A model generated the notes under the pieces. The model was not told where the DNA came from. It searched no databases and saw nothing but the letters and a program-made list of their open reading frames with translations. DNA of 36,434 nucleotides from a virus, in UHGV virus genome UHGV-0123062; one strand, given 5' to 3'. The first letter of the stretch is position 1. Each line of letters begins with the position of its first letter. The translations under genes and the position numbers were made by a program. This document shows, piece by piece, positions 4,792 through 28,887 of this stretch.

Positions 4792-4991
4792 ACAAAAAGA
4801 CCTGGTTTCGCGCATACATGTGGGCGCTGGTATGCGTCCTCGTCTCTTTCATTCTGTATGCAGGACTACTCCCCCGAATGATTTCATCAGACAGCTCCTT
4901 CCTGGTATTGCTGGGCATTTTCATTGCCATGCTGTACCCGGCAGGCGTTGTTCGCCTTTTCAGTAAGTACATCAAGGAAATCAAGCAATGA
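4788..4991 (+). CDS. Small integral membrane protein (two predicted TM helices), operon gene 3
   Basis: Hydrophobic segments WALVCVLVSFILYAGLL and FLVLLGIFIAMLYPAGVV; ATGA coupling on both sides. Confidence 0.55.
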   Translation: MNKKTWFRAYMWALVCVLVSFILYAGLLPRMISSDSSFLVLLGIFIAMLYPAGVVRLFSKYIKEIKQ

Positions 4992-5818
4992 AGAAATTCA
5001 AACTCTTTCAGATTCTCCCGCTTTTTGCCGCCATCCTGCTGGTTGGTTGCGATCGCGTTGAGCCAGGTAATGTGGGAATCAAAGTCAACAAACTGGGCGA
5101 CGACAAAGGCGTCGGCGAAGTAGTTGGCGTTGGCCGCTACTGGACAGGCTGGAATACAGAGGTTTACATCTTCCCGACTTTCAAACAAATGAAGACTTAC
5201 GATGAGCCGTTCAACTTCCAGATGAGTGACGGCACAACCATCGGCTATCACATCGGCGTGGCCTACAAAGTTGATCCATCCAAAGTTACCACGGTGTTTC
5301 AGACCTACCGCAAAGGCGTGGACGACATTACCGACACTGACCTGCGCCAGAAGATCGCCGACGCACTCAACCGACTGGCCAGCAAAATGACCACCGATAA
5401 ATTTATCGACGGTGGCAAGTCTGAACTGCTGGATTCAGCACTTAAAGACATTCAGGCAGAAATGACACCTATCGGCATTCAGGTAATGAGCCTCTCTTAT
5501 GTGGGTAAGCCGGAATACCCACCAACCGTTATCGACAGCATTAATGCCAAAGTCACGGCAAACCAGAAAACCCTGCAACGTGAACAGGAAGTCAAGCAAC
5601 GCGAAGCTGAAGCCAACATGCTGCGCGCAGAAGCTGCCGGACAAGCCGATGCCATTCGCACAAAAGCCCAGGCTGAAGCCGACGCCATTCGTTTACGCGG
5701 TGAAGCTCTGCGCCAGAATCCCGGCGTTATGGAGCTGGAAGCAATCAACAAATGGAACGGCACGCTGCCGCAATACATGACCAGCAACACCGCTGTTCCG
5801 TTTGTTCCGGTGAAGTAA
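4988..5818 (+). CDS. SPFH/band-7 (stomatin/prohibitin-like) lipoprotein
   Basis: Lipoprotein signal with lipobox (LLVGC); central region consistent with an SPFH domain; C-terminal Ala/Glu/Arg-rich coiled-coil-like segment (REAEANMLRAEAAGQADAIRTKAQAEADAIRLRGEALR). Confidence 0.65.
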   Translation: MKKFKLFQILPLFAAILLVGCDRVEPGNVGIKVNKLGDDKGVGEVVGVGRYWTGWNTEVYIFPTFKQMKTYDEPFNFQMSDGTTIGYHIGVAYKVDPSKVTTVFQTYRKGVDDITDTDLRQKIADALNRLASKMTTDKFIDGGKSELLDSALKDIQAEMTPIGIQVMSLSYVGKPEYPPTVIDSINAKVTANQKTLQREQEVKQREAEANMLRAEAAGQADAIRTKAQAEADAIRLRGEALRQNPGVMELEAINKWNGTLPQYMTSNTAVPFVPVK

Positions 5819-6861: not shown

Positions 6862-9684
6862 ATGACGACAGAGTACATCAGGGACTGGCAACAACCGCGC
6901 CACGCAGTGGGGCGTGAAGGAACGGGGATCCCCGCACCTGAATCCGCGCTTTCCTCCTGGCTGGATGCCTACCGGGCAGAGAACGAGCGCCGACAGGAAA
7001 AGGCTGATGCGGCGTTCTCCGCCACGCCGCTGGGCAACCTGATTAATAAAAGCCTGGATGCACAGGAAAAACAGGACAAAACTATCACACTGGCAGGAGA
7101 CGCCAGAAAACAGGCACGCGGCGCGGTGGATGAAGCCATGGCCTCGCTGCGCCTGCTGCCGTCCTATCTGCGCGATCCGCTTATTCGCCACCTCTCCTTC
7201 CTGCGCAAAAAACAGGAAGCCGATCGCCGGAAAGGCAAAAAGAGCTGGCAGGCGGAACGCTATGCACGCGGAACCCTGCGCAAAATATTCGAACGTCTGG
7301 ATCGCACTGACGGACGCTGGCTGACACCGGGTTATCGCTCCCTTGCCGGACGCGAACGCCTGGACGATTTGCTTTACCTGCCGCAGCTCAACAAACACCA
7401 GATACAGACGCTGGCCACCATGACGGCGGCGATGTTCAGCAGCACCTTCGAAAAACTCTGCGATGGCTTTGGCGCGACCGATGGCGAACTGACCATGGAT
7501 GTAACGCTGAAGACGTATCAGATGCTGGCCCGCATGGCGTTACACCTGCACATCATGCCTCCACATTATGACGCACTGACAACAGATAAAGACCGGAGGA
7601 ACGAACCGGACACGGAGCTGCTGCCGGGCGCAGTCCTTCGCCTGACCTGTGCGGAATGGTGGAAACGCAAACTGTGGCTGTTACGTTGCGAGTGGAGAGA
7701 AGAACAACTCCGCGCCGCCTGTCTGGTTTCCAGAAAAACATCGCCCTATCTGAGCCAGGACGCATTAAGCGAGTTTCGCGCACAGCGCGAGAAAACACGC
7801 GATTTCCTGAAAAGTTTCATGCTGGAAAATGAAGACGGGTTCACGATTGATCTCGAGACGGTGTATTACGCGGGAGTAAGTAACCCGGTTCACCGTAAGG
7901 CAGAAATGATGGCCACCATGAAGGGGCTGGAACTTCTGGCCGAAGCCCGTGGCGACAGAGCGGTGTTTCTGACTGTCACCTGCCCGTCAAAATACCACGC
8001 AACAACGGAGAACGGTCATCCGAATCCCAAATGGAACGGGGCCACCATGCGCGACTCCAGCGATTACCTGGTTAACACGTTTTTTGCGGCGGTCCGCAAA
8101 AAACTGAACCGCGACGGTCTTCGCTGGTATGGCATCCGCACGGTGGAGCCTCACCATGACGGCACTGTGCACTGGCATATGATGGTCTTTGCACATCCGG
8201 ACGAGATTGAAACCATCGTGTCCCACGTCTGCGATATTGCCATTCAGGAAGACCGCCACGAGCTGGGCGATGACATAACTCCGCGTTTTAAAGCGGAGTA
8301 CGTCGACGGCTCAAAAGGCACGCCAACCAGCTACATCGCCACCTACATCGGAAAGAACCTGGACAGCCGCGCCGTGGATGGTATCGACCCGAAAACGGGC
8401 AAGCCACGCGTTGACCACGAAACCGGAAAATCAATGGCCGAGAGCGTGGAGCGCGCCATCGGCTGGGCGCGCCTTCACCGGGTCCGCCAGTTCCAGTTCT
8501 TTGGCATCCCCTCCCGTCAGGTGTGGCGTGAACTGCGCCGCCTTGCCAGCCAGATGGCACGCAACCCGGAAGGCCCGCAACGGCTGAAGGATGACGCAAT
8601 GGATGCAGTGCTCGCTGCCGCTGATGCCGGGTGTTTTGCCTCCTACATTGAAAAACAGGGCGGCGTACTTGTTCCACGCAAAGACTACCTGATTCGCACC
8701 GCCTACGACCTCGCAGATGAGCTGAACGATTACGGCGAACAGAGCGTACAGATTTACGGGATCTGGTCACCACTCATCGGGGAGTCTTCCCGTGTGTGCA
8801 CACATCCGGATAACTGGAAGCTGGTAAGACGTAAACCGGAAGCGGAAGACAGCGCCCGCGAAAATGGTTTTGACCTTCAGGGCGGCCCTGCCGCCCCTTG
8901 GACTCGTGGCAATAACTGTCCCCGTGTACAGGAAACGGACAACAACGGGACAGAACAGCCGGAAGAACGGCCAGCACCGTGGCCGCAGCTTCCTGACGGC
9001 GTTGACGTGAACGAATGGATGCGCTCACTGAAACGGCACGAACGCCGGGCGCTGATGCGTTCGCTTCGTGACAAACAGGCAAAAAACAGCAGTGATGAAA
9101 TGCAGAGCTGGACACAGAGCCGCAAACAGCAGCGGCCTTTGCCTGATAACCACGAATTACTCGCTAAAGAATGGCGGGAATCTGCCGAATCTCTCGGCCT
9201 GCATATCGGTGAACAGCAGATGCAGCACCTGTTACGGGGCGGCAGCCTGTACGTTGACGGCAGCATCATTGCACCGCAGGGATTTGAAATTGTACGCAAA
9301 CCGGATACCCGCCCGGACAGCCGAATCACGCAGCTCTGGCAGCGCCTGAGCCGTAATCACGGCGTAAGCAGCACAGAGATCCGCCATAACCCAGTCGCCA
9401 GCTATCTGGAACAACTGGGGGCATCAGACCCCGAAGCCGCCGCACGTCTGGCATCCACACTTCAGCAGGACCAGAACACCATGCCCCCCCCCGTTACCGT
9501 GCTTTCTGACATGCTGCGCGCCATCCGTGACGCAGAGCACGCACAGAGAATCAGTGAAACCACTGAACGCGCCCACCGCAAAGCAGACCTGCTGCGGGGT
9601 AGCCTGACCAGTGGAAACAAAAAACAGACAGAAACGGGACTCACAAATCCCGTAAATGAGCAAAAAACGCGCCGCGATATATGA
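6862..9684 (+). CDS. A: Rolling-circle replication initiator endonuclease (P2 A-like), with long C-terminal extension
   Basis: HUH motif (HWHMMVFAHPDE) and Y-x3-Y active-site pair (SYIATYIGK); 940 aa, longer than P2 A as recalled. Confidence 0.9.
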   Translation: MTTEYIRDWQQPRHAVGREGTGIPAPESALSSWLDAYRAENERRQEKADAAFSATPLGNLINKSLDAQEKQDKTITLAGDARKQARGAVDEAMASLRLLPSYLRDPLIRHLSFLRKKQEADRRKGKKSWQAERYARGTLRKIFERLDRTDGRWLTPGYRSLAGRERLDDLLYLPQLNKHQIQTLATMTAAMFSSTFEKLCDGFGATDGELTMDVTLKTYQMLARMALHLHIMPPHYDALTTDKDRRNEPDTELLPGAVLRLTCAEWWKRKLWLLRCEWREEQLRAACLVSRKTSPYLSQDALSEFRAQREKTRDFLKSFMLENEDGFTIDLETVYYAGVSNPVHRKAEMMATMKGLELLAEARGDRAVFLTVTCPSKYHATTENGHPNPKWNGATMRDSSDYLVNTFFAAVRKKLNRDGLRWYGIRTVEPHHDGTVHWHMMVFAHPDEIETIVSHVCDIAIQEDRHELGDDITPRFKAEYVDGSKGTPTSYIATYIGKNLDSRAVDGIDPKTGKPRVDHETGKSMAESVERAIGWARLHRVRQFQFFGIPSRQVWRELRRLASQMARNPEGPQRLKDDAMDAVLAAADAGCFASYIEKQGGVLVPRKDYLIRTAYDLADELNDYGEQSVQIYGIWSPLIGESSRVCTHPDNWKLVRRKPEAEDSARENGFDLQGGPAAPWTRGNNCPRVQETDNNGTEQPEERPAPWPQLPDGVDVNEWMRSLKRHERRALMRSLRDKQAKNSSDEMQSWTQSRKQQRPLPDNHELLAKEWRESAESLGLHIGEQQMQHLLRGGSLYVDGSIIAPQGFEIVRKPDTRPDSRITQLWQRLSRNHGVSSTEIRHNPVASYLEQLGASDPEAAARLASTLQQDQNTMPPPVTVLSDMLRAIRDAEHAQRISETTERAHRKADLLRGSLTSGNKKQTETGLTNPVNEQKTRRDI

Positions 9685-9730
9685 AGCGCACACAAAACAG
9701 GCAAAAACGGGATTTAAAAATCCTGTAACC
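9630..9730. promoter_or_regulatory. Candidate parC-like centromere/operator: two palindromic repeat units
   Basis: ACGGGA-N8-TCCCGT (9634..9653) and ACGGGA-N8-TCCTGT (9707..9726) immediately upstream of parM; the first unit lies inside the 3' end of A. Confidence 0.4.
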
Positions 9731-9760
9731 GATTAATTAATCAACATAAGGAAAAGCGAC

Positions 9761-10720
9761 ATGAAAATTTGTATCGACGACGGCTCCACCAACATCAAGC
9801 TGGCATGGACTGAGAACGGCGAACGCCGCAACGCCATCAGCCCGAACAGCTTCAAGTCGGAATGGTCTGCGCCGTTCGGTGGCACGCAGCCCGCGAACTA
9901 CATGCTTGATGGCGTGCGCTATGGTTTTGATCCGGTCAGCGATCGCTTTGTCCAGACGACCGACACGCAATACCAGTACAGCGATGTGAATGTAATTGCC
10001 ATTCATCACGCGCTGGTCAAATCAGGCATCACACCACAGGAAGTGGATGTGGTTGTCACCCTGCCACTGAGCGAGTATTTCGACACAAACGCACAGCCGG
10101 ACATGGCCAACATCAACCGCAAAAAAGCGAACGTTATGCGCCCGGTGGAGTACCAGAACGGCGAAGCATTCACTATCCGTAACGTGCGGGTTATGCCTGA
10201 ATCCATTCCGGCTGGCTTTAAGGCACTGGCTGACATGAGTCCGTTTGAATCCCTGCTGATTGTGGATTTAGGCGGAACCACGCTGGATGTGGCAAAGGTT
10301 CAGGGACAACTGGCAGGTATCAGCCAGGTGTTTTGCGATCCACACGTAGGCGTTTCCCTGATGTCCGATGCCGTACTGTCGGTGATGGCCACTAACGGTA
10401 TGCGTACCAGTCACCACATCGCCAATACCATTATCGAACATCGCCATGATGAAGCCTGGCTGCGCCAGCACATCCACAATGACGCGCATTACGCCAGCCT
10501 GATGGCGGTTATTCGTGAAAAGGAAGAAACACTGAAACAACGCGTGATCCGCGCGCTGGCGGGTTTTTCGGGTTACGGGCGGGTGATGATTGTCGGTGGC
10601 GGGGCAGAAATTGTGGCACCCGCTATCCGCGAAGCCTGCGGAGTTAATGCGACTTTCATCGCGGACGGGGTGCCACAGTTTGCTCTGGTTAATGGGCTGT
10701 ACGCAATGGACAAGGAGTAA
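9761..10720 (+). CDS. parM: ParM/StbA-family actin-like partition ATPase
   Basis: N-terminal phosphate-1 motif (ICIDDGSTNIKLAW), ISPNSFK, YSDVNVIAIHHAL, VMPESIPAG, LIVDLGGTTLD and IVGGGAE match my recollection of plasmid R1 ParM along the whole length; AAGGA RBS. Confidence 0.85.
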   Translation: MKICIDDGSTNIKLAWTENGERRNAISPNSFKSEWSAPFGGTQPANYMLDGVRYGFDPVSDRFVQTTDTQYQYSDVNVIAIHHALVKSGITPQEVDVVVTLPLSEYFDTNAQPDMANINRKKANVMRPVEYQNGEAFTIRNVRVMPESIPAGFKALADMSPFESLLIVDLGGTTLDVAKVQGQLAGISQVFCDPHVGVSLMSDAVLSVMATNGMRTSHHIANTIIEHRHDEAWLRQHIHNDAHYASLMAVIREKEETLKQRVIRALAGFSGYGRVMIVGGGAEIVAPAIREACGVNATFIADGVPQFALVNGLYAMDKE

Positions 10721-10724
10721 ACCA

Positions 10725-11036
10725 ATGACGACACCAACCAGACGGATAAGTTTCTATCTGAAGCCCGCCGCCGTCAAGAACGAAGGCGAAGCATGCGCCT
10801 GGCTGGACAGCCTTACACCAGAAGCCCGCAAAAGTGGTCAACGCGTGGCTTTTCTGGCCGGGCTGGCACTACTGAAAATGAATCCGGCAGAGGCTTACCG
10901 ACTGGCTGCATGGGCTGATGATGAGGCGTTATCAATGACACAAACCAGGACAGAACGCCCCGCGTCACAGCCAGTATCAACCGCACAGATAACCAGTCAG
11001 ATGGCCGGAAATATCCGGGCGTTATTTCCCGAATAA
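10725..11036 (+). CDS. parR: ParR-like ribbon-helix-helix partition adaptor
   Basis: Immediately downstream of parM with AAGGAG RBS; N-terminal beta-strand segment (RRISFYLKP), FLAGLALL and C-terminal NIRALFPE resemble R1 ParR as recalled; start trimmed to ATG 10725 inside listed ORF 10590..11036. Confidence 0.65.
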   Translation: MTTPTRRISFYLKPAAVKNEGEACAWLDSLTPEARKSGQRVAFLAGLALLKMNPAEAYRLAAWADDEALSMTQTRTERPASQPVSTAQITSQMAGNIRALFPE

Positions 11037-11041
11037 CACAA

Positions 11042-11065
11042 CATCAGGGCGCATCCGCCCTGATG
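11042..11065 (+). other. Perfect 10-bp stem / 4-nt loop hairpin (CATCAGGGCG-catc-CGCCCTGATG) between parR and the next gene
   Basis: Seen directly; no adjacent T-run, so terminator function is uncertain. Confidence 0.4.
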
Positions 11066-11099
11066 ACTTTAACCCGGGAGCATAAACAAGGGGGACACA

Positions 11100-11744
11100 A
11101 TGCAACACATTGACAGAGAAAAAGCGCAGCGACTGATTGAGCGGATGGAAGCGCTGGCGAAAGAAGAAAATGTCAACATCCAAAAAATAGCTGAATGTGG
11201 CCAGATAGTTCTTCGTCGTGAAAAAGACCTCAAACAACTGATGTCTGGCGAAACCAGCAAAACATGGACTTCAGGCGAGAAGACGGTTTATTGCAGCTTC
11301 TGCAATAAATCCCAGTACGAAGTCACAAAGGTGATTGCCGGACCGTCTGTTTACATCTGCAATGAGTGCGTGGATTTGTGCAATGAAATTATCAGGAAAG
11401 AAGTGACAGACAAAAAGGAAAAAAAACGCATGAACAGAAAACAGAAACAAGAGTTGAAATACTTCTTACGTAAAGAAATTGCCAGGCTTGAAGATGCAGA
11501 GTCACAATCATCAGAAATTCCGTTCGGAATGGATATCAACGACGCCCGTATGCTCCAGGCATACCGCATAGCTCAGGCTGCACTACAGGCAAAACCGTCA
11601 GATGGACTGGTTAGAGCAGTACATTTCTATGAACAGGTAAAGCGTGAGAATCCGCCAGTCGAAACTGGAGTATGGAAAGACGCTATTGACTGGGTGACCA
11701 AAGAGGCTTGCCAAGCTGTAGACATTGGCATCAAAGGAGAGTGA
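11100..11744 (+). CDS. ClpX zinc-binding-domain (ZBD) mimic protein
   Basis: Residues ~64-100 ([39 protein letters not shown]) closely match the C4 zinc-ribbon of the ClpX N-terminal domain as I recall it from E. coli ClpX; no AAA+ ATPase module follows; flanking regions are unrelated to ClpX. Confidence 0.75.
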
Positions 11745-12043: not shown

Positions 12044-12070
12044 AAAGCGCCTCAGGGGCGCTTTTTGTTT
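12044..12070 (+). terminator. Rho-independent terminator (AAAGCGCC-tcagg-GGCGCTTT + T-run)
   Basis: 8-bp GC-rich stem, 5-nt loop, TTTTTGTTT tail; ends the rightward early/accessory transcript. Confidence 0.75.
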
Positions 12071-12100
12071 GCACAAAAGTGCACAAATTTGCACAATTTT
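12071..12100. repeat. Three tandem 10-bp repeats GCACAAA(A/T)(G/T)T
   Basis: Seen directly: gcacaaaagt gcacaaattt gcacaatttt, helical-turn phasing, just after the terminator. Confidence 0.5.
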
Positions 12101-12520
12101 TTTGAACAACTTTTTACCCTTCCGACCCGCATGGCGGCTGGATCCGTCAAGGATCCGTGCGTGCACAAAAAAACGCGTTTTTTCTGCGCGCAGGTGACGG
12201 GGGAACAGCCCGCGTTTCAGGGGGTAAATAGCATTCCCTAAACGATGTCGCAGAGATACAACAGAATGGCTGTATTTCTCACGCTGAGCGTGAAAAAGAC
12301 GTGAGGGCTTTTGATTTGATGGGGTGAAAGGTAAGGCCGTCAAAATCGCACTGAGACGGCGAGAACATGCAGTCAACGCGGTGGGATTGCGTAAGAGTCT
12401 GGCTGTCGATGATGGCAATAAGCAGGAAAGCGTCGTGAAATTATCTGATTGATACAGGAGCTGGAGAGTCGGGGCATAAATTTTTTATGCCCCGGCGAAG
12501 CAGCAGACAAGCGAAGCGCG
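12101..12520. other. Non-coding region expected to contain cos (position not resolved)
   Basis: By P2 synteny cos lies between the A-side accessory genes and Q; contains a direct repeat GGATCCGT x2 (12141..12160), a GC-rich stretch GACGGGGGAACAGC (~12195..12208) and a 10-bp-stem hairpin (12472..12494). Confidence 0.3.
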
Positions 12521-20134: not shown

Positions 20135-20276
20135 CCCACCCACATGGGGAAACCTCGGAATATGGGGCGACCGCCTTCTGGATGCACTGGAAACCTGTAA
20201 CGCGGATAAACGGGCCATTGCTGAACTGGATAAGAGAATAGCCGAACTGACACACCAGACGGGAGTAACACAATGA
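19995..20276 (+). CDS. lysC: o-spanin lipoprotein (Rz1 / LysC-like), embedded in +1 frame of the i-spanin gene
   Basis: Lipobox LLTGCAG, Pro-rich body; overlaps lysB out of frame; the listed ORF begins at GTG 19965. Confidence 0.6.
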   Translation: MNAPTLCLTLVLLTGCAGTQNAPGPAPSVRLIPQTLTMPVTPPPFPDPPTWGNLGIWGDRLLDALETCNADKRAIAELDKRIAELTHQTGVTQ

Positions 20277-22153
20277 CCAGTAAGAACTTTGCACTGATTA
20301 CAGCCATGACACAGGCTGAACTGACTCAAAAGGTGAATGAACATCTTGCGAAAGGGTGGCATCTTCAGGGGGAGACGCGGGTTGCCTACGAACCCGGCAC
20401 CCCGTGGTATCTAATGCAGGCAATGGTGGCCGATGGCACTACAGACATCTCACCTGATTCCCCCCAGCACGGCAGCGTGCCGGAGTGGTATTACGTGGTG
20501 GTACTTGCTGGTCAATCCAATGCCATGTCATATGGTGAGGGAATGCCGCTGCCGGATTCTTACGATGCGCCCCACCCACGCATTAAGCAACTGGCCCGTC
20601 GCAACACAGTGACTCCCGGTGGTAAAGCATGCGCATTTAACGACATCATTCCGGCAGACCACTGCCTGCATGATGTTCAGGATATGAGCGCACTGAATCA
20701 TCCGAAGGCAGACCTGAGCAAAGGGCAGTACGGCTGTGTCGGCCAGGGCTTACATATTGCCAAAAAACTGCTTCCGTATATCCCGAATAACGCGGGGATC
20801 CTGCTGGTACCATGCTGTCGTGGTGGTTCGGCATTCACCCAGGGCGCGGAGGGGACATTCAGTGCGGACACGGGGGCCAGCCAGGATTCGGCACGCTGGG
20901 GTGTGGGTAAACCGTTATATCAGGACCTGATCGCACGCACCAAAGCGGCATTACAGAAGAACCCGAAAAATGTGTTGCTGGCGGTGTGCTGGATGCAGGG
21001 CGAATTTGACATGAGCGCTGCCACCTACGCACAGCAACCGGACCTGTTCACGGCCATGCTGAAGCAGTTCCGTACTGACCTTTCCGGATTTAACGCGCAG
21101 TGCCATGGCGGCAGTGCTGCAGTTGTACCGTGGATTTGTGGCGACACGACGTATTACTGGAAAAACACATACGGCACACAGTATGACTCCGTCTACGGCG
21201 CGTACAAAAACAGGGAGAGCGACAACGTTTTCTTTGTGCCGTTCATGACCGACGGTAACGGCAACAACACGCCCACCAACTTACCGGCAGAAGACCCGGA
21301 TATTGCTGATGCAGGTTATTACGGCGCGCAATCCCGTAGTAATGGTAATTGGGTATCATCAAACCGCCCGACACATTTCAGTTCATGGGCGCGCAGGAGC
21401 ATTATTCCGGATCGTATGGCAACCGCTATTCTGAACGCAGCCGGGCGCACCTCAGCCTTCATCAGTGGTAAGGCACCGGAAATCAAACCCTCGCCCGGCG
21501 GCGACACTCCATCGGGGCCGTCTGATGGTGACACATCCGTTCATACAGTCTCCCTGCTGCCGACAGCCGGAGAGGCTGCTGCGCAGGGCTGGACCATCAC
21601 CGGCGGCAGTGTTGCGCTGGAAGATGGTGTGTTTAAGGTTACCAAGCAGAGCAATAAAACCTGGTCCCTGATGCATCCGGTGGATGACGCAGTCTCCCTG
21701 CTGACACGGGGTGGCAGACTGAGCTGTAAGTTTCGACTGTCAGGCGCACTGACCAACAACCAGTTCGGTCTGGGAATTTATCTGTATACCGATGTAGCGT
21801 TACCTGACGTCGTGGCGATGACCGGGACTGGTAACCCGTTCCTGATGTCGTTCTTCACCCAGACCACAGGCGGCAAACTGAATCTGATGCATCACAAGAA
21901 AGCCGGAAACACAAAGTTGGGCGAGTTCGGGAATTACAGTAACGACTGGCAGACGCTGGAGCTGGTGTTCACCGCCGGCAGTGCCACGGTTACTCCGAAA
22001 CTGAATGGAGTGGCTGGCCCGGCATTCCAGGTCATAAAAGACAGTCTGACACTGGGGCTGAATGCGCTGACGTTAACTGATATCACTAAAAATGCCGCGT
22101 ACGGCGTCGATATCGGCAGCCTGGTGCTGGAAATCAATAATCCCGCAGCATAA
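20273..22153 (+). CDS. NanS-p-like SGNH/SASA esterase with N-terminal DUF1737-like region and C-terminal beta-sandwich-like domain
   Basis: 626 aa; GQSNAMS catalytic-serine motif as in sialate O-acetylesterases; Pro/Gly-rich linker (PEIKPSPGGDTPSGPSDGD); inserted between lysis genes and R. Confidence 0.7.
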   Translation: MTSKNFALITAMTQAELTQKVNEHLAKGWHLQGETRVAYEPGTPWYLMQAMVADGTTDISPDSPQHGSVPEWYYVVVLAGQSNAMSYGEGMPLPDSYDAPHPRIKQLARRNTVTPGGKACAFNDIIPADHCLHDVQDMSALNHPKADLSKGQYGCVGQGLHIAKKLLPYIPNNAGILLVPCCRGGSAFTQGAEGTFSADTGASQDSARWGVGKPLYQDLIARTKAALQKNPKNVLLAVCWMQGEFDMSAATYAQQPDLFTAMLKQFRTDLSGFNAQCHGGSAAVVPWICGDTTYYWKNTYGTQYDSVYGAYKNRESDNVFFVPFMTDGNGNNTPTNLPAEDPDIADAGYYGAQSRSNGNWVSSNRPTHFSSWARRSIIPDRMATAILNAAGRTSAFISGKAPEIKPSPGGDTPSGPSDGDTSVHTVSLLPTAGEAAAQGWTITGGSVALEDGVFKVTKQSNKTWSLMHPVDDAVSLLTRGGRLSCKFRLSGALTNNQFGLGIYLYTDVALPDVVAMTGTGNPFLMSFFTQTTGGKLNLMHHKKAGNTKLGEFGNYSNDWQTLELVFTAGSATVTPKLNGVAGPAFQVIKDSLTLGLNALTLTDITKNAAYGVDIGSLVLEINNPAA

Positions 22154-27742: not shown

Positions 27743-28221
27743 TCACGCCGCCCTCACGATATAGTTAAACGCGATATTGCGGGGGCGGGTTATGTTAAAG
27801 AATGCTCCGTTTAATTCGGCTTTTGCGCGACTGTTTGTTCCACCCAGCATTGCGTACCACAAATAATCGCTACGGTAATTCCCCGCAAACACCTTATCGC
27901 CGCCATAGTCAATATTATTTCCGTTACTCATGTACGAGATATCAAGCGCAGAATCGTTATCGTCATGACCGCCGACCAGTGTACCTTTCTGCCATGAAAG
28001 CAACTTACGCCCCTCGTCAATCTTGCGCCCGTCGTCCCATCCACGGATAAACTCACCGCGTAAATCGGGAAGACGGAGGGTCGGGTAGACTCTGGCCAGA
28101 ACAGGATATTGTTCTTTTGTAAAGGTGCGCCCGTCGCACTTTAACCAGCCTGCTGGCGGTGTGGCAGTGGGCCACGGAACAGGTACACCAACGGGCAGCG
28201 CCGAGCCTTCCCCCAAACCAA
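27743..28221 (-). CDS. Alternative tail-fibre C-terminal cassette (promoterless, would fuse to constant H on inversion)
   Basis: Minus-strand reading frame shares the 66-aa junction segment with H then diverges to a different C-terminus ending NYIVRAA; the listed ORF 27743..28273 has no credible independent start. Confidence 0.65.
27995..28221 (-). repeat. Right inverted repeat of the invertible segment (~227 bp)
   Basis: Reverse complement encodes the same ~66-aa segment with a few substitutions. Confidence 0.8.
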
Positions 28222-28287
28222 CGTTTTCGTTTTTATCCCTACCTATACCAACTCTGTATTTTTCACGAAACAAAGAGGATGTTTTTT

Positions 28288-28887
28288 ATGCAAATTGGCT
28301 ATATTCGTGTGTCAACAAACGACCAGAACACGGATTTACAACGCAATGCACTGAACTGCGCAGGATGTGAACTGATTTTTGAAGATAAAATCAGCGGAAC
28401 GAAATCAACCAGACCGGGATTGAAAAAACTGCTCAGAACGCTATCAGAAGGAGATACGCTGGTTGTCTGGAAGCTGGACAGACTGGGCAGAAGTATGAAA
28501 CACCTGATCACGCTTATTGAGGAATTGCGGGAAAAAGGTGTTAATTTCCGTAGTCTGACGGACAGCATTGACACGTCAACACCCATGGGGCGTTTCTTTT
28601 TTCACGTCATGGGGGCTTTAGCCGAAATGGAACGTGAATTAATTGTAGAACGTACACTGGCCGGGCTGGCAGCAGCACGCGCACAAGGACGCATTGGCGG
28701 ACGTCGCCCGAAGTTGACAAAAGAACAACACGAGCAAATAGCGAGGCTGATTAAAAACGGTCATGACAGGAAACAACTGGCGATCATTTACGACATCGGC
28801 ATATCGACGATTTATCGTTATCACCCTGTAGGCGATATACAGGCTGAAGAAACAACCAGGCAGACTCAGGAAAATGAAAACCGCTAA
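28288..28887 (+). CDS. Serine DNA invertase (Hin/Gin/Cin/Pin family)
   Basis: N-terminus MQIGYIRVSTNDQNTDLQRNAL with catalytic Ser motif; C-terminal HTH; GAGG RBS; start trimmed to ATG 28288. Confidence 0.9.
   Translation: MQIGYIRVSTNDQNTDLQRNALNCAGCELIFEDKISGTKSTRPGLKKLLRTLSEGDTLVVWKLDRLGRSMKHLITLIEELREKGVNFRSLTDSIDTSTPMGRFFFHVMGALAEMERELIVERTLAGLAAARAQGRIGGRRPKLTKEQHEQIARLIKNGHDRKQLAIIYDIGISTIYRYHPVGDIQAEETTRQTQENENR

Follow-up and report, generated by a model that had tools for sequence, protein, structure and literature searches.

The 36,434-nt sequence UHGV-0123062 (hereafter the window, meaning this stretch at its full length) comes from an integrated P88-like (Xuanwuvirus) prophage of the P2 family. 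Next to its replication gene gpA, the element encodes an actin-like ATPase, ParM, and a small predicted adaptor, ParR, behind a pair of symmetric repeats. We favor, with a probability of roughly 60%, the reading that these components form a working type II (ParMRC) segregation module, which is a conserved part of the gpA-containing rightward gene block and acts on the extrachromosomal, circular phage genome. Direct support comes from the family membership of ParM and ParR, the intact catalytic motifs, purifying selection, a long-term synteny with gpA, and the conservation of the symmetric repeats; that ParR binds the repeats, when the cassette is expressed, and what it does in the cell are inferred. 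The original prediction, made from the bare sequence, had placed a complete parC-like/parM/parR cassette of the R1 kind in an integrated P2-family prophage, and Pfam matches, alignment with R1, and gene context all bear this out. The components are as follows:

6862..9684, + strand: gpA, replication endonuclease, 940 aa (Pfam Phage_GPA, 1.8e-129; phrog_91, 'nicking at origin of replication')
9617..9655, unstranded: copy 1 of a 39-nt direct repeat, candidate ParR site 1 (parC-like), with the perfect dyad 1, ACGGGA-N8-TCCCGT, at 9634-9653
9690..9728, unstranded: copy 2 of the 39-nt direct repeat, with the imperfect dyad 2, ACGGGA-N8-TCCTGT, at 9707-9726; candidate for the second ParR site and for the operator
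9761..10720, + strand: parM, actin-like segregation ATPase, 319 aa (Pfam, PHROG, and R1 ParM matches)
10725..11036, + strand: parR, predicted adaptor/centromere-binding protein, 103 aa (Pfam PF10784, phrog_2515)

Composition of the cassette

ParM belongs to the R1 family. It matches the Pfam StbA_N model (1.8e-82), the ParM C-terminal domain (3.3e-68), and PHROG 691, 'partition protein'; a phmmer search against solved structures aligned residues 2-316 with R1 ParM (1mwk and others) at an E-value of 9e-93, and the match to the generic ALP_N model stayed just below threshold (25.7 bits against a cut-off of 26.3). A global alignment gave 46.5% identity to R1 ParM over the full length. The phosphate-1, phosphate-2, connect, and adenosine motifs (DDGSTNIKL, MPESIPAG, DLGGTTLD, and GGGAE) are all identical to those of R1, including the equivalents of R1 E148 and D170. 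The resemblance to R1 ParM along the whole protein, claimed from the sequence at the outset, is thereby confirmed, and the catalytic motifs are not degenerate.

The gene is also under strong constraint. Copies were drawn from IMG/VR, GTDB, and phage and plasmid records; the relatives retrieved by peptide patterns were all at least 97% identical and form the basis of the population statistics, and the intermediate relatives discussed below came from a protein-homologue search. An intact 319-aa open reading frame (ORF) was present in all 87 copies examined, with a mean pairwise ratio of nonsynonymous to synonymous substitution (dN/dS) of 0.05. These data bear on the idea that the cassette is a decaying relic of a past plasmid-phage recombination, devoid of current function. 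Most P2-family phages lack the cassette, as a relic would have it, but the intact copies, the low dN/dS, the retention of all ATPase motifs, and a synteny maintained across genera at 54-62% protein identity effectively refute this explanation.

ParR matches the Pfam family PF10784 (Plasmid_stab_B, StbB/ParR family) at 2.6e-24, with 85.3 bits against a cut-off of 25 bits, and phrog_2515, 'partition protein', at 2.3e-58. The gene starts 4 nt past the parM stop, and its Shine-Dalgarno sequence, AAGGAG, lies within the 3' end of parM. At the N-terminus, the protein has a conserved TRRISFYLKP stretch with helices behind it; a hypervariable linker then leads to a conserved NIxxLFPE tail at the C-terminus. 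The N-x4-F motif of this tail does not vary between phage and plasmid ParRs, and the N-terminal R-x-(I/V)-x-FYL is conserved.

Many ParR alleles exist, which share 50-97% identity, whereas the adjacent ParM proteins are at least 95% identical. All have the N-terminal MTTPTRRISFYLKP stretch together with the NIxxLFPE tail, and most of their differences are in the linker. The N-terminal 63 codons of parR have a dN/dS of 0.13 and the linker one of 0.50, and homology breakpoints fall inside the gene at about codons 18-22, 47, and 63. The polymorphism of ParR is seated chiefly in the linker and arises by mosaic recombination; the predicted DNA-reading and ParM-binding ends are conserved.

The repeats upstream of parM are good candidates for the centromere and operator. 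They had been described as ACGGGA-N8-TCCCGT occurring twice, 73 bp apart; the two dyads and their spacing stand, and the second dyad departs by one base, reading TCCTGT in the window and TCCCGT in most relatives. A repeat search found the two 39-nt copies to be 82% identical at a spacing of 73 nt. Dyad 1 lies inside the last codons of gpA, which ends with its stop at 9684. Between the window and phage 569R5, substitutions are found in the N8 spacers, and the arms turn into a perfect palindrome; at dyad 1, a relative differs from the window in the spacer but not in the arms. In Plesiomonas and Hafnia, whose ParM proteins are 62% identical to that of the window, two GGG-N10-CCC dyads of the form (C/T)GGGA-N8-(T/A)CCC(G/A) again precede parM, and the dyad-to-dyad spacing is 73 bp in both the window and Hafnia and 72 bp in Plesiomonas. 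Hafnia has an additional ORF of 167 aa between gpA and parM, and there the dyads remain next to parM, which argues for their being part of the par module and not of gpA or the replication origin.

The repeat type also co-varies with the N-terminal stretch of ParR. The three ParRs paired with the two-dyad motif share TRR(I/V)SFYL. In the Serratia/Enterobacter subclade, ParR reads NRKISFYL, and the upstream region holds one long inverted repeat, CGGGAAC-ATAGAAAAAT … ATTTTTCT-GTTCCC, so that TRRISFYL goes with two small dyads and NRKISFYL with one large inverted repeat. L092, the only plasmid-type relative that was looked at closely, has 11-bp iterons of a different sequence upstream.

It is unlikely, to our minds, that the dyads serve some other purpose and that the real ParR site is located elsewhere or absent. 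They would then be the operator of a different regulator, a hairpin that acts as leftward terminator or in an RNA, or an element related to gpA or the origin. Dyad 1 scores as a minus-strand terminator-like hairpin, and its place within the gpA coding sequence would suit such a purpose; two sites, moreover, are unlike the iteron arrays of R1-type plasmids. The enrichment in the window is weak as well: when one mismatch is tolerated, the dyad pattern occurs 4 times where 1.17 occurrences would be expected, and 4 or more are seen in 3 of 100 shuffles. Since the count alone is weak, the case for a centromere rests on the adjacent pairing upstream of parM and on conservation across genera. Against another purpose speak the Hafnia dyads, which track parM and not the gpA stop, the 72-73 bp spacing kept in three genera, the conserved arms with variable spacers, and the switch of repeat type along with the ParR N-terminal stretch; nor does any leftward gene downstream need a terminator at this place. 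On this reading, ParR would bind these dyads.

A backbone module of P88-like phages

The window belongs to a widespread and closely related group. By megablast, the stretch 9400-11300 is matched at 100% in E. coli strain 1450, where the element is integrated beside dmsA, at 97.5-98.4% over the whole query in phages P88 and PhiR44_2, and at 94-97% over part of the query in other Xuanwuvirus/Peduoviridae records. The same stretch is present in 1362 of 5426 complete E. coli genomes. The parM-parR pair of phage P88 and other Xuanwuvirus members (NC_026014 and relatives) is the same cassette, with ParM 98-99% identical; the window differs in carrying one of several ParR alleles and in the single base of dyad 2, and in nothing else substantive.

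The cassette had been regarded as cargo of the accessory slot between genes A and Q, and this view does not survive the counts. At a query coverage of at least 80%, P88-type gpA is found in 1323 and parM in 1279 complete E. coli genomes (aggregate counts, not per-genome), which points to the two genes nearly always being found together, and a wider clade of P2-like phages has the cassette in four other genera, each time directly behind the replication region. The cassette is a conserved backbone module of the P88-like lineage, not a swappable occupant of the slot. The variable region begins further on, where a hairpin marks the boundary:

11042..11065, unstranded: GC-rich hairpin with a 10-bp stem just past parR, at which several related phages cease to be homologous and variable cargo starts

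In six phage records, the match to the window stops at 11029-11062. As homology breaks just past parR or inside it, the variable gpA-gpQ hotspot begins at or within parR. In the relatives, genes for HicA/HicB in Serratia (L089, 9450-10084) and for a KAP-family NTPase in Enterobacter (L090, 9411-10757) directly follow parR, which fits a defense/toxin hotspot that starts downstream of it. The variable defense hotspot of P88-type phages is thereby placed after parR and not directly after gpA.

More distant relatives place the ParM of the window in a lineage of its own. A tblastn search of 50,697 phage records with ParM returned only P88-like isolates, at an identity of at least 95%, and phage D6, at 47.5%. 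A search of 72,556 plasmids gave matches in more than 5000 records; six of these carry a P88-like element, and none of the others exceeds 53% identity. Intermediates at 54-62% identity emerged from a search of a 5.8-billion-protein collection; they occur in Hafnia, Plesiomonas, Serratia, and Enterobacter, all in P2-like prophages with the gene order gpA-…-parM-parR, a little cargo, and ogr/portal/terminase. Relatives at 52% identity or less sit on plasmids and integrative and conjugative elements (ICEs), namely a Pantoea Rep3 plasmid, a Dickeya Tra-bearing island, and a Mangrovibacter Rep3/ParAB region. A neighbor-joining tree of 107 ParMs groups the phage-borne proteins in a single clade of 16, and R1 and the three marked ParMs of plasmid or ICE context fall outside it. 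A single phage clade in synteny with gpA indicates that the association of ParMR with the P2-type replication module is old.

One further ParM record stands apart. A contig assigned to a Gram-positive genus ('Vagococcus sp. WN89Y', NZ_JBQPOM010000071.1, L004) encodes a protein 97% identical to the E. coli phage protein; the assembly is likely contaminated or mislabelled.

The presence of this cassette and the speculation on a plasmid lifestyle were already known. The find is not unexpected, as the genes are annotated in RefSeq and PHROGs and such a system is mentioned by Rousset et al. 2022. RefSeq annotates the genes as 'plasmid segregation protein ParM', 'plasmid partitioning/stability family protein', or 'partition protein' in the P88 reference and in more than 1000 chromosomes, and according to Rousset et al. 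2022, the gpA-gpQ locus holds a putative plasmid partitioning system in about one in four P2-like phages of E. coli (PMC9122126). The prediction had named, as a condition that would refute it, a cassette standard in this phage lineage with a known role; standard it is, with a role that is only proposed. The present additions are modest: the status of the cassette as lineage backbone, a phage-specific ParM clade syntenic with gpA across five genera, a two-dyad centromere candidate unlike iterons, and a mosaic parR with conserved ends.

The position of the cassette bears on its expression. gpA is the upstream, same-strand neighbor of parM, and a scan for + strand terminator-like sites found none between the two. 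Two further features complete the transcriptional context:

9736..9744, + strand: ATTAATCAA box behind dyad 2 and ahead of the Shine-Dalgarno sequence AAGGA (9748-9752), at a conserved position in the window, Plesiomonas, and Hafnia
12044..12064, + strand: best intrinsic-terminator candidate, with a 9-bp stem and a T-run

The terminator candidate follows a ClpX-zinc-finger ORF and a phrog_1714 ORF and stands just before the presumed cos region and gene Q; it probably closes a rightward operon gpA-parM-parR-ZnF-orf88. By this arrangement, parM and parR look like distal genes of a rightward early operon shared with the replication gene. The ATTAATCAA box may be a -10-like element of a local parM promoter, with dyad 2 lying over the -35 region. 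A site for integration host factor at this box was rejected, as inspection by eye gave no match to WATCAANNNNTTR.

Proposed action on the extrachromosomal phage genome

The favored reading would operate as follows. After infection or induction, the rightward operon would transcribe gpA, then parM, then parR. P2-type phages replicate by a gpA-initiated rolling circle that yields monomeric circles, which are also the packaging substrate. On these circles, ParR dimers would bind both GGGA-N8-TCCC dyads just upstream of parM, which at 73 bp are about seven helical turns apart, and would probably also repress a weak local promoter. The C-terminal tail of ParR would then capture the ends of ATP-ParM filaments, and the growing filaments would push sister circular phage genomes apart. 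The benefit could lie in spatial organization and in efficient replication or packaging, and possibly also in the inheritance of a copy by both daughters if the cell divides before integration or lysis, or after excision. The module would thus stabilize a transient episomal phase and not a permanent plasmid state.

Among the closest known systems is the type II plasmid partition system R1/NR1 parMRC (stbAB), with which the cassette shares the Pfam families of both proteins, the order repeats-parM-parR, the four ParM motifs, the predicted N-terminal DNA-binding stretch of ParR, and its C-terminal N-x4-F tail. The settings differ, however: R1 is a theta-replicating low-copy plasmid, whereas the present cassette directly follows the rolling-circle initiator gpA in a P2-family phage that integrates. 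R1 parC consists of ten iterons, in two blocks of five 11-bp iterons; here two 20-bp dyads stand 73 bp apart, and the phage ParMs form their own clade.

The closest experimental precedents, which support the favored reading, are two integrating elements with analogous machinery. In the CGP3 prophage of Corynebacterium glutamicum, AlpA, AlpC, and alpS comprise early genes whose adaptor binds repeats upstream of the operon and links circular phage DNA to filaments, and AlpAC are both needed for efficient phage DNA replication (PMC4446434). CGP3 is likewise an integrated prophage encoding an actin-like ATPase with a co-transcribed adaptor. In contrast to the present cassette, AlpC is of another, distant actin-like family and AlpA shows no relation to ParR; CGP3, moreover, is a large and probably defective prophage of a Gram-positive host; the resemblance of the P88-type cassette to AlpAC thus appears to be one of function, not of family. 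The srpMRC locus of the SXT/R391 ICEs stabilizes the excised, rolling-circle-replicating, plasmid-like form and is expressed only along with excision and replication functions (PMC4489591). Here, too, a ParMRC-like locus belongs to an element that integrates and, once excised, undergoes rolling-circle replication; it differs in that SrpM is distant from R1 ParM, SrpR is without recognizable ParR homology, the element is an ICE and not a phage, and the locus lies beside int and not beside a replication gene.

Phage D6 offers a comparison on the plasmid side. Its StbA-type ParM belongs to the same Pfam family (47.5% identity), and D6 is a 91-kb phage that we take to be a P1-like plasmid prophage. 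The present element, by contrast, integrates by a tyrosine recombinase, and more than 99% of its occurrences are chromosomal.

A plasmid lifestyle nevertheless has to be weighed for the P88-like phages themselves. They might be facultative plasmid prophages, a hidden phage-plasmid group in which a low-copy circular episome persists over generations and ParMRC performs true plasmid partition. In favor, the cassette is complete and under selection, and Rousset et al. 2022 raised the idea (PMC9122126). PLSDB, in addition, holds a 34,461-bp circular 'plasmid', NZ_CP148288.1, that comprises a whole P88-like genome closed next to int. We nonetheless judge this lifestyle improbable. In complete E. 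coli genomes, 1441 of 1443 parM places are chromosomal, which leaves the stable episomal state suggested by the original prediction nearly unsupported; phage-type ParM occurs in only 6 of 72,556 plasmid records, five of which are replicons of 228 kb to 1.4 Mb and thus no circles of phage size. The element is integrated and has a tyrosine integrase, and among the annotated and scanned products there is no plasmid replication initiator, the rolling-circle gpA being the only initiator seen. The circular NZ_CP148288.1 could itself be an excised replicative form assembled as a circle. Slightly less probable still is the more specific proposal that gpA rolling-circle replication and ParMRC together maintain a low-copy circle for many generations, with integration and episome as alternative lysogenic modes and NZ_CP148288.1 as an instance; episomal carriage may then occur before integration, in a carrier state, or in cells whose attachment site attB is already taken. 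Stable maintenance as a plasmid prophage is at best rare.

Two observations concern the circular record. The chromosome of its strain, E. coli Z1323PEC0009, was not among the best matches in the E. coli collection. Also encoded in the record (L002; NZ_CP148288.1, 1-34461) are a Hok/Gef toxin and a Com/methyltransferase pair.

The cassette might instead serve the host, or a conflict with other elements, if its expression from the prophage blocked incoming plasmids or phages through par-mediated incompatibility or exclusion, or if it acted on the host chromosome. P2-like phages keep anti-phage cargo in the gpA-gpQ interval (PMC9122126), the neighboring cargo of relatives includes HicAB and a KAP NTPase, and the 50-97% identity of ParR, set against at least 95% for ParM, could reflect such a conflict. 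Yet PADLOC gave no match for ParM, ParR, or the two downstream proteins at E-values up to 0.01; the cassette is conserved, unlike the adjoining variable cargo, and retains its own cis repeats; and the variation in ParR is linker-centered and mosaic, with the functional ends conserved. The plasmid ParMs are at most 53% identical, and the one plasmid-type centromere examined consists of 11-bp iterons of another sequence, so cross-reaction with plasmids is unlikely. The ideas of interference and co-option voiced in the original prediction therefore find no support, and we consider a host-benefit or conflict role very doubtful. A defense system as such was rejected, as no PADLOC model matched and the cassette is conserved rather than variable.

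Several points also weigh against a segregation module that acts on the transient phage circle. Most P2-family phages lack such a module, so that its benefit must be conditional. The candidate centromere has two dyads only, against the ten iterons of R1, and any partition complex on it is putative. A scan for consensus sigma-70 promoters found none upstream of parM, and the timing of expression is consequently deduced from gene order alone. Weak + strand terminator-like sites lie within the cassette at 10310-10327 (inside parM, consensus-level), 10492-10507, and 11005-11018, so read-through to 12044 is not certain. In ParR, the TRRISFYLKP stretch with two helices behind it and the invariant N-x4-F motif would fit an N-terminal ribbon-helix-helix fold and a C-terminal ParM-binding tail. 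The AlphaFold monomer, built on a 17-sequence alignment, is nevertheless too poor to establish the fold, with a predicted local distance difference test score (pLDDT) of 55, and ParR matched no solved ParR by sequence in the PDB, even at E-values up to 10. Finally, we found no functional study of a P88-type cassette in the literature, and the P88 and phiSM papers contain no analysis of it.

If the favored reading is correct, the P88-type cassette would provide a Gram-negative, genetically tractable case of a phage that uses its own actin-like cytoskeleton, in a phage type whose hosts make up about 24% of complete E. coli genomes, including sequence type 131 (ST131). The principle known from SXT/R391 and CGP3, that active partition is needed in the short extrachromosomal phase of integrating elements, would gain a further example. 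For annotation, chromosomal entries named 'plasmid segregation protein ParM' usually mark P88-type prophages and not integrated plasmids.

Further features of the element

The genes around the cassette comprise a tyrosine integrase, a C-type repressor, cox, the 940-aa gpA, the portal gene Q, the terminase gene P, the genes O, N, M, and L, and lysis and tail genes. Upstream of gpA, the early operon includes a 276-aa SPFH/Band-7 domain protein (4988-5818).

Downstream of parR, a poly-A tract at 11418-11427, within the ORF 11100-11744, has eight A's in the window against seven in E. coli strain 1450. The extra A fuses a 110-aa ClpX-type zinc-finger ORF with the next ORF of 104 aa into one of 214 aa; either a sequencing error or a polymorphism in homopolymer length could account for the difference. 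After the terminator candidate, three TGCACAA repeats are followed by a 400-bp non-coding stretch before gene Q, and the region 12044-12110 is probably the end of the early operon together with the cos region.

Two further genes stand out. A 626-aa protein (20273-22153) that combines DUF1737, a SASA-type carbohydrate acetylesterase domain, and DUF6645 is encoded between the lysis and tail genes, an unusual cargo position for a P2-type genome. A serine recombinase (resolvase/invertase with HTH_7; 28159-28887) adjoins the tail-fiber and tail-fiber-assembly genes, which suggests an invertible host-range segment.

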